A program made the translations under genes and the position numbers. This document shows positions 58,443 through 60,710 of a DNA stretch of 60,710 nt, piece by piece; the stretch's first letter is position 1, and every line of letters starts with the position of its first letter. This stretch comes from an uncultured Bacilli bacterium. Lineage in GTDB: Bacteria > Bacillota_I > Bacilli_A > RF39 > UBA660. Location: assembly GCA_910577075.1 (NCBI GenBank), contig CAJTKV010000002.1, forward strand, positions 20,455-81,164. Direction: 5' to 3'. Under the pieces are notes generated by a model. The model did not search any database. It saw only the letters and a program-made list of their open reading frames with translations, and was not told the origin of the DNA.

Positions 58443-59621
58443 ATGGACTTAAAAGGAGAATTAATAGGAACTTGGGATGAAACAGAAGCAAGTATGCAAA
58501 AGCAAGCCAAGGGAGATTATCCAACGTTTGTATACGATAATTCAACAGCAGGCGGAATTTTGGAAAGTATGTCAACTTTTTTTCAAACGATAAAGAAGAT
58601 AGAAAATACGGGAAATACGGTCATAGCAAATATAAATAGATTGAAAGAATTATATACAGAATTTGGAGAAGTTTTACCAACTTTAGATAGTATATGTGGA
58701 AATTTAACTAATAATATTCAGGCAATAAAGAATTGTAATGAAAATATCATAAAAAATCTAGAATTAGCAGTAGCCGAAGCAATGAAAAAAGATGCTGCAT
58801 TTGCGGAAGACTTGGGAATATTAAATCAACTAATGAGTGAAGAAGGAATAAATCCAACAGTAGATATAAGTGCACAAAATGCAAGTTCAGATCCAGCACC
58901 TCAAGTTGAGCAACCGGTAGAAGGATCAAGTCAATCAACATACACAGTATCAAGCGGAGACACCTTAAGCAAAATAGCAGCAGCTCATGGAACGACAGTA
59001 GCCGCAATAGCAGCAGCAAATGGATTAAAAGATATAAACAAAATAGGAGTAGGACAGCAATTGATAATACCAAATGGAAGTGAAACTCCATCACAAACTT
59101 CAACAGCAGAATCACCAAGTGTAGAAGAACAAATAATGCAAAGTGAAGATGTGAATGCTTTCAAAATGGATAACTCAACATCAAATGGCAATATTGATAC
59201 TAGTAAATATAATAATAACGAAAATAGAGGATTTGTTGTTACAACAGGCAATCAAACTTACACAAATATGAGTTCCAAAGACAAAGAATTGTTAACAGCA
59301 ATTATATGTGCAGAATGTGACGGAAGTTATGATGATGCATTAGCTGTAGCTTCAGTTATATTAAACAGAACAGAAAGCCCTCAGTGGTCATGGTGCGGAA
59401 ATAGCCCTGTCAAACAAGCTACGGCTCCAAGTCAATTTGTTGTATATGAAAACAATAGATATCAAAAATACATGGGAAGCGGAGTTAATCCTGTTGTTCA
59501 AGAAGCTGTTAATGATGCTTTAAATGGGGTTAGAAATAATAATTATTATTCATTTAGATCAAATGGCAGTACAGGTTACAGTAGCAATATGATTACATCA
59601 TCTGGAAATAGATATAAATAG
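58443..59621 (+). CDS. Helical N-terminal domain + LysM + SleB/CwlJ-type (Hydrolase_2) cell-wall hydrolase; candidate T7SS effector
   Basis: The N-domain has 'FVYDNSTAGGILES' and 'MKKDAAFAEDLGILNQLM'. LysM is 'YTVSSGDTLSKIAAAHGTTVAAIAAANGLKDINKIGVGQQLIIP'. The C-terminal 'LLTAIICAECDGSYDDALAVASVILNRTES...APSQFVVY...AVNDALNG...YYSF' matches the SleB catalytic domain pattern. No signal peptide. Confidence 0.75.
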   Translation: MDLKGELIGTWDETEASMQKQAKGDYPTFVYDNSTAGGILESMSTFFQTIKKIENTGNTVIANINRLKELYTEFGEVLPTLDSICGNLTNNIQAIKNCNENIIKNLELAVAEAMKKDAAFAEDLGILNQLMSEEGINPTVDISAQNASSDPAPQVEQPVEGSSQSTYTVSSGDTLSKIAAAHGTTVAAIAAANGLKDINKIGVGQQLIIPNGSETPSQTSTAESPSVEEQIMQSEDVNAFKMDNSTSNGNIDTSKYNNNENRGFVVTTGNQTYTNMSSKDKELLTAIICAECDGSYDDALAVASVILNRTESPQWSWCGNSPVKQATAPSQFVVYENNRYQKYMGSGVNPVVQEAVNDALNGVRNNNYYSFRSNGSTGYSSNMITSSGNRYK

Positions 59622-59630
59622 GAGGATTTT

Positions 59631-60710
59631 ATGGATTTAGTAGGAAATTGGGATGATGCTGAAGCATCTTCAATTAAAGAAGCAAAAACATTTGATAATT
59701 TTTTATATGATAATAGTACTGATGGTGGAATAATTGACAAATTATCTGATTATTATAATCTCATTAAAAAAGTTGACGAATCCGCAAAACTGGCGATAGA
59801 TAATCTTAAAAGTATAAAAGATAATTATGACTCATTCAATGACATACTAGGACAATTGGGAACATTAAGTAATAATTTAAACAGCAATATTTCTTCTTTA
59901 AAAAGAGCCAATGAGCGTCTTGTACGAGGTATGGAGTCAACCGTTATGGATGCTATGGAAAAAGACTTGCAATATGCTGAAGATTTAGAGTTAATTACAG
60001 AATTAATGAATGATGAAGGATATGTATCCAATAGAACATTGGGAATAACTAATGATACTGTAACTTCTGCATCAACGAGTACTTCAACAACCTCTGTTTC
60101 TTCTGAACCTACAAGTTATACAGTTAAAGGTGGAGATACCTTATCTGCAATAGCCAAGGAAAATGGAACAACTGTTGAAGAACTAGTTAGTGCAAACAAT
60201 ATAACTGATCCAAACAAGATTTACGTTGGACAAGAAATAGTAGTTCCAAATAAAGAGCAGACATCTAGTATTGAGCAAACTGGAGAGAATTCTAACACTA
60301 TCTCTTATTCTTCAAATACATCTGCAAATGAAACATCATATTCATCGTCCAATATAGCTAGTCCAGAAACTGCAAATACTAATATAACAACTGGAGCATC
60401 AACATCTACTAATAAATCAGATACTTCTTCTACAAACTTTTCAGCAGAAGAAGTGGCTAAAGTGGGTACTGAAGTTGTACATACAGCAAGTTCAGCTATT
60501 ACTACTGGTAAAACTGTTACTGAAGCTAGTAGAATTGCGACAGAAGCCATAACTGGAACTCAAAGAAATGTTAGAATAACTAATGCCAAGTTGCCTCCAA
60601 GTTTTGATCAAATTTTACAAGATCAATATAATATTGGTACTGTATCAAATCTTCAAACAACCAATGTGTTTGCACAGCCAATAAATCCTACTACTTTCGA
60701 TACCCAACCA
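59631..60710 (+). CDS. Helical N-terminal domain + LysM + Ser/Thr-rich linker + unknown C-terminus (3-prime truncated by the window)
   Basis: This ORF is not in the supplied track. By hand translation the frame is open from the ATG at 59631 (RBS 'aggagg') to the last base. It reads '[36 protein letters not shown]...[18 protein letters not shown]', then LysM '[44 protein letters not shown]'. Confidence 0.7.

Follow-up and report, generated by a model that had tools for sequence, protein, structure and literature searches.

Signal-less wall-directed proteins with a common candidate type VII targeting domain in an uncultured Bacilli bacterium

Introduction

How would neighbouring peptidoglycan-binding (LysM) proteins that lack a signal peptide leave the cell that makes them? 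The question is raised by the open reading frames (ORFs) G and H, which close a stretch of 60,710 nucleotides from an uncultured Bacilli bacterium of the GTDB lineage RF39/UBA660 (assembly GCA_910577075.1, contig CAJTKV010000002.1, positions 20,455 to 81,164 of the forward strand; the whole stretch is called here the window) and stand in one gene cluster with an EssC-type ATPase of type VII secretion. An earlier, sequence-only reading of this DNA proposed that the N-terminal domain common to both proteins (the N-domain) may be a distinct type VII targeting module that delivers cell-wall-acting cargo, either as antibacterial effectors or as secretion-dependent autolysins. The analysis lends support to this proposal, as the N-domain genes stand in synteny with EssC and YukD-like genes in four genomes, and their cargo is nearly all wall-directed. 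The reading preferred here, with a probability of about 0.6, is that the adjacent variant type VII system exports G, H and a third LysM protein, encoded just outside the window, as its substrates, the N-domain being a new targeting module. The N-domain head was considered a candidate type VII targeting signal because it precedes wall-acting domains devoid of a Sec signal, occurs in bicistronic gene pairs, and is encoded next to EssC and YukD-like genes.

The LysM proteins of the window and their neighbour

The two ORFs are composed of the following features.

58443..59621, plus strand: ORF G, 392 amino acids, N-domain, LysM module and SleB/CwlJ-like hydrolase domain
58443..58847, plus strand: N-domain of G, residues 1-135 (AlphaFold2, family search)
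58941..59072, plus strand: LysM of G, residues 167-210 (Pfam PF01476, E 1e-15, 57.8 bits)
59325..59555, plus strand: Hydrolase_2 (SleB/CwlJ-type) core of G, residues 295-371, with the Glu of AECDG (Pfam PF07486)
59631..60710, plus strand: ORF H, first 360 of 409 amino acids, cut by the window edge, N-domain, LysM module and Ser/Thr-rich tail
59631..60023, plus strand: N-domain of H, residues 1-131
60117..60248, plus strand: LysM of H, residues 163-206 (Pfam PF01476, E 9e-18, 64.4 bits)

All the coordinates and features that the sequence-only reading had given for G and H were recovered, with a good Shine-Dalgarno element (AGGAGG) upstream of both ORFs (at a spacing of 5 nt for G). A hydrophobic N-terminal segment is present neither in G and H nor in any of the 84 members of the N-domain family described below, and the signal peptide is absent from both proteins, as had been claimed. 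BLASTP aligns the N-terminal 130 residues of the two proteins at 39% identity and 67% similarity (E 2e-32); the motif blocks quoted earlier are contained in them, and the LysM modules that follow match the Pfam profile along its whole length (positions 1-43 of 43 in each protein).

The assignment of the C-terminal part of G to the SleB/CwlJ group also held: Hydrolase_2 is matched with 30.4 bits at the Pfam cut-off of 27, and the profile of eight proteins with the G-type cargo matches the SleB structures 4F55 and 4FET (E 4e-5). The sole invariant acidic residue in the alignment of these eight proteins is the Glu of AECDG, which is aligned with the Glu of the SleB motif YGESRGE, the residue that we take, from the SleB structures, to be catalytic. 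Judged from these alignments, the domain is a divergent SleB/CwlJ (Hydrolase_2) domain and a putative glycan-strand-cleaving enzyme. The endoglucanase matches returned for the same domain by a single-sequence search of the PDB were rejected as spurious, SleB being found with the family profile only. The single-sequence AlphaFold2 model of full-length G was poor, with a predicted local distance difference test score (pLDDT) of 50, and was left unused.

Further assemblies of the species (locus L003) contain ORF H in its full length of 409 amino acids. Its tail is a low-complexity segment rich in Ser, Thr, Pro and Gln, which has no match in Pfam and in which no enzyme domain was recognised; the Ser/Thr-rich linker and the truncation of the C-terminus by the window edge had been noticed correctly. 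The description of G and H as two tandem LysM proteins is right in the arrangement and wrong in the number, as a third protein with N-domain and LysM (387 amino acids, L003:12513-13676) is encoded 3' of H just outside the window, and a topoisomerase gene then ends the cluster at L003. The C-terminus of the third protein (residues ~250-387) is a conserved module of ~135 amino acids that is also found in the family members P0072 and P0076, with the motif ...AVSPKFGTVGDNI.V.L..G..I.C.IAD.KG.DA...GH.FG...VDVIEW..., and has no match in Pfam or the PDB; perhaps it is a wall-acting domain not described before.

The N-domain family and its predicted fold

The N-domain is a real, coherent and unannotated family, to which no Pfam or NCBIfam model corresponds. 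The profile of the four N-domain copies of the window, used in an exhaustive hidden Markov model (HMM) search of 1.84 billion cluster representatives, retrieved 87 proteins (51 of them below 1e-10), three of which are repeat or coiled-coil artefacts, leaving a family of ~84 clusters. Word-indexed protein searches were insensitive to it, with no protein returned for the N-domain of G as the query and five for the profile of 55 sequences. Roughly half of the family consists of stand-alone domains of 110-160 amino acids, and the remainder of proteins of 200-690 amino acids in which the N-domain is nearly always N-terminal; the NCBI label of the family proteins is 'LysM peptidoglycan-binding domain-containing protein' only.

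The motifs W[DN]xxEAxxxK and FxYDNxxxGG are located in the first 38 residues of the N-domain, YxxFTxF in the middle and DxxLxxDLxxL near the C-terminal end. In the AlphaFold2 model calculated from the alignment of 55 sequences (mean pLDDT 82.6), the conserved leader of 38 residues is followed by a predicted helical hairpin composed of helix 39-70, turn 71-76 and helix 77-133, with YxxFTxF at the turn.

The EssC cluster and its conservation in other genomes

The final 11 kb of the window form a single gene cluster of the plus strand, with one gene on the minus strand; upstream of ORF G it contains the following genes.

49381..54030, plus strand: EssC-type type VII secretion ATPase, 1549 amino acids, with N-terminal FHA and FtsK/SpoIIIE ATPase domains
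54027..54281, plus strand: YukD/EsaB-like small protein, 84 amino acids, its start overlapping the stop of EssC
54383..54832, plus strand: stand-alone N-domain copy, 149 amino acids (BLASTP E 2e-22 to the N-domain of G; family HMM E 7e-37)
54870..55223, plus strand: partner protein, 117 amino acids, central YHGxG and C-terminal Y..A..D
55326..56825, minus strand: RHExxH...E(E/Q)A protein, 499 amino acids
56902..57276, plus strand: second stand-alone N-domain copy, 124 amino acids, more divergent (family HMM E 3.6e-24)
57290..57610, plus strand: second partner protein, 106 amino acids, FHGEG motif (partner HMM E 1e-44)
57588..58373, plus strand: repeat protein, 261 amino acids, seven tandem TGK(R/K)(I/V)EL(D/N)xDP units

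The ATPase matches the NCBIfam model TIGR03928 (T7_EssCb_Firm) with 932 bits at a cut-off of 778, along the profile positions 5-1288 of 1296, and the Pfam domains FHA (E 4e-8) and FtsK_SpoIIIE are found in it; by these profile matches it is a bona fide type VII ATPase. The YukD-like protein is matched by the Pfam model YukD only weakly (E 0.26), yet the match spans the profile positions 2-75 of 76. Between 57.6 and 60.7 kb no terminator-like site was found on the plus strand, and the promoter scan of this AT-rich DNA, with 72 sites against 67 expected, was uninformative.

The cluster is found with a shared gene order in four independent genomes: that of the window species (the window and L003), the metagenome-assembled genome CAMODU01 (L001), a 528-kb scaffold (L014), and GCA_016648615.1, where it was recognised from the gene sizes and Pfam matches only; partial versions exist at L018 and L015. 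The loci available from the genome and metagenome scans are few overall and include duplicates (L011 is the same as L001, L012 as L002, and L010 is from the window species). The order starts with EssC, the YukD-like gene, and one to three pairs of N-domain and partner genes, continues with the gene of the ~500-residue protein on the opposite strand and that of the repeat protein, and ends, often after another N-domain/partner pair of the opposite strand, with an array of two to five N-domain cargo genes. Homologues of the YukD-like protein occupy the equivalent position at L001 (E 3e-28) and L014 (E 2e-33). EssC of the window is closed by an acidic run (53990-54030, ...YTEAEEEEEE), and the C-terminus of the L001 homologue is alike (...STEVEEDTEDEI).

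Directly 3' of every gene that encodes an N-domain only, a partner gene is located, an arrangement that resembles the esxB-esxA pairs. The partner family, aligned from six members, comprises proteins of ~105-130 amino acids with an invariant HG within the central (Y/F)HGxG and a C-terminal Y..A..D; the two partners of the window (54870-55223 and 57290-57610) are 42% identical. No match to the family was found in Pfam or the PDB, and it is similar to WXG100 in the size and the motif position, although no model detects the likeness.

The 499-residue protein and its L001 homologue share 28% identity (E 9e-52) and the zinc-peptidase-like motif RHExxH...E(E/Q)A; the protein has further homologues at L014 and L015 and contains a weakly hydrophobic segment at about residues 90-112. 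The repeat protein (57588-58373) is composed of a charged N-terminal helix region and repeats of 15-17 residues, and its homologues occupy the same cluster position at L001, L014 and L018. Neither protein has a match in Pfam, NCBIfam or PHROG. The two suggest machine components not yet known: the HExxH protein could be either a processing peptidase or a component particular to this system, and a role of the repeat protein as a ligand of the EssC FHA domain, in view of the conserved Thr of each repeat, is pure speculation.

Proposed route of export

By analogy with the WXG100 pairs and the complexes of LXG toxins with their Lap partners, the leader and hairpin of the N-domain would act as the targeting module. 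The N-domain would probably bundle with one of the ~105-residue YHGxG partners of the same cluster, and EssC would recognise the composite signal of the N-domain and the partner. Outside the cell, LysM (or CW_7 in most relatives) would fix the protein to the peptidoglycan, where the C-terminal module would then work on the wall, by SleB/CwlJ-like glycan cleavage in the case of G; in the third LysM protein this module would be the conserved ~135-residue domain described above, and H has no recognisable enzyme. The family would thus be polymorphic, with a single constant head and exchangeable wall-directed cargo.

Several observations weigh against this reading. The canonical EsaA, EssA, EssB and WXG100 EsxA were recognised neither in the ORFs around EssC or upstream of it in the window nor in the 10 kb downstream at L003, so the secretion machine is perhaps incomplete, or some of its parts are encoded elsewhere. 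No significant WXG100, LXG or Lap match was obtained for the N-domain and the partner family, for which the analogy with WXG100 and LXG is drawn from the size, predicted fold, motif position and gene order. All the carriers are uncultured metagenome-assembled genomes, and the export is argued from the gene context. Several family members, in arrays or singly, are located away from any visible EssC; such orphan substrates are usual among LXG toxins too. Furthermore, the Hydrolase_2 score of G barely exceeds the Pfam threshold, and no immunity-like gene was found beside or between the cargo genes at the window/L003, L001 and L014 loci, where these genes are 10-100 nt apart and have no intervening ORFs. 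With antibacterial type VII toxins, adjacent immunity genes are typically present.

Relation to the LXG, WXG100 and LDXD domains

The alternative that survives best, though it is unlikely, is that the N-domain is a WXG100/LXG superfamily domain that has diverged strongly, in which case G and H would be ordinary LXG-type substrates. The LXG and WXG100 families are described as related (PMC3482391), and the predicted helical hairpin with a conserved aromatic turn motif, as well as the combination of EssC with small helical partners, which is the gene context of LXG toxins, are what this alternative would lead one to expect.

A confident match of the N-domain to LXG or another described type VII targeting domain, named in the sequence-only reading as the result that would refute its proposal, was sought with Pfam, NCBIfam, hhalign and Foldseek and was not obtained. 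For G, H and the two stand-alone copies no LXG match appeared in Pfam at E<=1, nor any in NCBIfam, and no window protein matched WXG100 in either collection, whereas the genuine LXG protein YokI of SPbeta scores 192 bits on PF04740. In the Pfam scan of 55 members at E<=1, the families matched most frequently are generic coiled-coil ones, and the top 25 include neither LXG nor WXG100; the only one of these 25 with a tie to type VII secretion is YwqH-like, which comes from LXG loci and whose faint signal in 9 of the 55 members (best E 0.011) speaks for the kinship. The hhalign comparison of the family profile with YokI gave a probability of 0.5%, and that with a profile of 17 Bacillus LXG sequences 0.2%. 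The N-domain has ~135 residues against ~200 for LXG, possesses its own motifs in the 38-residue leader, and carries YxxFTxF at the turn, with no L-x-G there. The LXG signature, which could not be seen by eye earlier, is indeed missing as a profile match, but the tripeptide L-x-G itself is present in the first of the quoted blocks (ELIG/DLVG) in three of the four window paralogues; it is located in the N-terminal leader and not in the hairpin turn, and is unconserved across the family.

With a verified profile of EsxA, ESAT-6 and CFP-10, hhalign aligned the N-domain at a probability of 4.5% (E 0.009), which is insignificant, although this best alignment places the turn on WxG and in that respect favours the kinship; the partner family reached 0.3% with the same profile. 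The positive control, LXG against WXG100, failed too (0.3%), and therefore the profile tests are blind to remote superfamily kinship. The Foldseek search of the PDB with the N-domain model returned generic coiled coils only (best E 1.3), a null result that says nothing for or against LXG because simple hairpins are not discriminated. When the PDB was searched by sequence with the profiles of the N-domain and the partners, nothing came up but designed coiled coils, HR regions of spike proteins, syntaxins and antibodies, which were treated as composition artefacts.

The LDXD variant of the WXG domain (Zhang, Iyer and Aravind) was ruled out, as the N-domain is not succeeded by a transmembrane helix: no transmembrane-like segment (19-residue Kyte-Doolittle window above 1.8) was found in the 84 members. 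On these comparisons the N-domain lies outside the LXG, WXG100 and LDXD families as they are defined, and its predicted fold is compatible with a WXG-like superfamily. The wall-hydrolase cargo without immunity genes is likewise unlike that of LXG toxins.

Cargo spectrum and exchange of cassettes

The Pfam cargo of the 51 long members of the family is of 13 types in total, with CW_7 in 24 proteins, NlpC/P60 in six, LysM in five, CHAP in three, Hydrolase_2 in two (besides weaker-scoring ones), and Peptidase_M15_4, Phage_lysozyme2, CAP and Transglut_core in one each, a variability of the C-terminus behind a constant head, as in LXG polymorphic toxin systems. No nuclease, NADase, deaminase or ADP-ribosyltransferase was found among the cargo of these 51 members. 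Non-lytic cargo exists as well, namely CAP, the long repeat proteins rich in Gln and Asn, and H, which lacks a recognisable enzyme domain. Four members (P0013, P0035, P0079 and P0086) have Gly/Ala-rich C-termini instead of wall hydrolases, which are faintly like glycine-zipper membrane toxins and contain no transmembrane-like segment above the hydrophobicity threshold.

G and the third LysM protein are 98% identical along the residues 6-245 (240 amino acids) and unrelated afterwards. At the DNA level, this is a duplication of ~720 nt that covers the N-domain and LysM of two genes standing two genes apart (window 58443-59180 and L003:12513-13250), with 100% identity over ~600 nt. The duplication with unrelated 3' halves points to a recent exchange of cargo cassettes or gene conversion within the array, and a head and anchor that stay constant while the C-terminal cassette is exchanged are the signature of polymorphic effector families.

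Self-serving, sporulation and phage-derived roles

A second alternative, which is also improbable and somewhat less plausible than the superfamily kinship, accepts the type VII export and holds that the proteins serve the producer itself as housekeeping autolysins or surface proteins, perhaps including a space-making hydrolase of the EssH type, and are not weapons. The autolysins of a cell are typically anchored by modules such as LysM and CW_7, the glycan-cleaving, endopeptidase and carboxypeptidase cargo resembles a full autolysin complement, with the non-lytic cargo in addition, and no cargo gene is adjoined by an immunity gene. The T7SSb of Staphylococcus aureus (the b type of type VII secretion system, T7SS) requires a dedicated CHAP hydrolase, EssH (PMC13059805), and the first cargo gene past the core is of the Hydrolase_2 type in both the window and L001. 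However, a single space-making enzyme would be enough, whereas the loci contain two to five different cargo genes each, in sets that vary among the genomes, and the recent swap with 100% identical flanking DNA is more like the diversification of conflict systems. The swapping of cassettes and the variability of the arrays tip the balance slightly towards secreted bacteriolytic effectors and away from a self-directed role.

The third alternative is that the proteins are not secreted through EssC and act in the sporulating cell in the manner of SafA and CwlJ, with the head as a coat-assembly coiled coil. SafA (LysM) and CwlJ (Hydrolase_2) are devoid of signal peptides; the mother cell makes them, and they assemble onto the forespore. 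The combination of LysM with a SleB/CwlJ-type domain and no signal peptide is of that pattern, with weak spore_safA and spore_SleB matches. The YunB-like (Pfam E 2e-18) and YutD-like (E 7e-26) proteins encoded at 39190-41045 (plus strand) are a hint of a spore-forming organism or of spore-forming ancestry. Against this stand the CW_7, NlpC/P60, CHAP, M15 and phage-type lysozyme cargo of the family and the EssC/YukD cluster conserved in four genomes, with no sporulation genes; a role of the SafA/CwlJ type is thus conceivable for G alone, while the family and the context do not fit it, and the alternative is quite improbable.

Lysins of phages or mobile elements that came to lie near EssC by chance are the least credible source, for although LysM, CW_7, NlpC/P60 and CHAP are common in endolysins and PHROG endolysin matches exist, these cover the LysM segment only and none concerns the N-domain, the partners, the HExxH protein or the repeat protein, the tblastn search of 50,697 phage and 72,556 plasmid records with the N-domain returned nothing, and the locus has no flanking phage genes; on the PHROG coverage and the empty tblastn search, a phage or plasmid origin was rejected.

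Other genes of the window

The DNA upstream of the cluster contains a biosynthesis cluster of the teichoic-acid type at 22068-36592, with three TagF-like CDP-glycerol glycerophosphotransferases, GT2 glycosyltransferases, an ABC-2 transporter, Acyl_transf_3 and PMT_2 (the G+C fraction is 0.25 at 26-30 kb), which indicates an organism with a wall of the Gram-positive type. A ferredoxin-like ORF at 37745-38173 (minus strand) has an N-terminal CxxCxxC and an unusual tail rich in Cys, Asp and Glu (...CDCEDDECDCDSDECDCDSEDC...). Twelve tRNA genes are located at 44489-47193 and are followed by a restriction endonuclease gene of the MvaI/BcnI type at 47228-48013 (minus strand, Pfam E 1e-41); no methyltransferase was noted beside it, and the type VII cluster starts ~1.4 kb onward. 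Divergently from EssC, a DUF5684 membrane protein with a zinc-ribbon-like C-terminal tail CxxC...CxxC (48114-48962, minus strand) and an acidic protein of 78 amino acids (48998-49234, minus strand) are encoded.

Comparison with known systems

The LXG toxins of T7SSb and their Lap partners (TelA-C, EsaD, YokI/YeeF) are alike in having a helical head without a Sec signal, an exchangeable C-terminus with a sharp identity break at the head/cargo border, small putative partner genes close by, EssC adjacency and orphan copies elsewhere. They differ in the cargo, which comprises nucleases, NADases, a lipid II phosphatase and membrane toxins, as compared with the wall binders and murein hydrolases carried by the N-domain; moreover, the N-domain family leaves the LXG model unmatched, has motifs of its own along its ~135 residues and is without adjacent immunity genes, and the YHGxG partners match none of the Lap families (DUF3130, DUF3958, WXG100).

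With the WXG100 pairs EsxA/EsxB, the N-domain genes share the position downstream of EssC and YukD, the predicted helix-turn-helix with an aromatic turn motif, and the bicistronic arrangement with a ~100-residue protein that bears a central aromatic-x-G (YHGxG). They are distinguished by YxxFTxF instead of WxG at the turn, the additional 38-residue leader, the cargo of 150-500 amino acids in about half of the members, and the lack of a WXG100 match in HMM and PDB searches.

EssH possesses its own Sec signal peptide and is not known to be a type VII substrate itself. It is comparable as a peptidoglycan hydrolase tied to a Gram-positive type VII system (PMC13059805), and differs as a single dedicated CHAP enzyme from the several signal-less hydrolases with a putative type VII head considered here. 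In a preprint (bioRxiv 10.64898/2026.08.24.746431), EatA of Mycobacterium abscessus is presented as an ESX-4 toxin against arabinogalactan, exported with the WXG100 partners TapA1/TapA2, and is to that extent similar as a type VII substrate that degrades an envelope polysaccharide and is accompanied by small helical partners. It belongs to a T7SSa of Actinomycetota, with another targeting domain, other partners and another target polymer.

The T7SS variants c-j (Garrett, Higginson and Palmer 2024, PMC11217815) are alike in the core of EssC/TsxC and the YukD-like TsxB, in the lineage-specific extras, and in the small WXG100-related genes that flank the substrates. They are described without an HExxH protein, a TGKxIEL-repeat protein or wall-hydrolase substrates, the paper making no mention of peptidase, LysM, peptidoglycan or hydrolase, and their kinase, phosphatase and DUF6382 components were not seen in the cluster of the window. 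Among the modular secreted murein hydrolases used against neighbours, the cluster of the window differs from all in its lack of immunity proteins, Sec signals and linked self-protection. Such hydrolases are the Tae/Tge effectors of type VI secretion, which have cognate immunity proteins, and the bacteriolysins lysostaphin, zoocin A and enterolysin A, which use Sec signals and linked self-protection genes.

The design of type VII polymorphic substrates, with a helical head, small partners, EssC and swappable C-termini, is thus already known; what appears new, as judged by comparison of the proteins and gene orders, is the head family, the partner family, the nearly exclusive wall cargo without immunity genes, and the accompanying HExxH and repeat proteins. 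Neither these elements nor murein hydrolases exported via type VII, apparently without immunity proteins, were found described in the literature searched.

Significance

More tentatively than the reading of G, H and the third LysM protein as type VII substrates, it is proposed that EssC, the YukD-like protein, the HExxH protein and the TGKxIEL-repeat protein may constitute an undescribed T7SS subtype of uncultured gut and rumen Bacilli, dedicated to polymorphic signal-less wall hydrolases and binders by means of the new head and its YHGxG partner. To our knowledge, type VII substrates of Bacillota are currently recognised almost solely by the WXG100 and LXG signatures, and a third head domain with its own partner family, if true, would widen the space in which such substrates can be searched for. 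The finding bears on the ways in which type VII substrates and machines traverse the thick Gram-positive wall, and on type VII secretion as a possible general route of exoproteins or autolysins. The constant head with swappable cargo would be a defined module for the targeting of heterologous cargo, and, if the proposed subtype is real, type VII secretion in these bacteria would be the principal export path of autolysins or bacteriolysins, and not of toxins that act inside cells.

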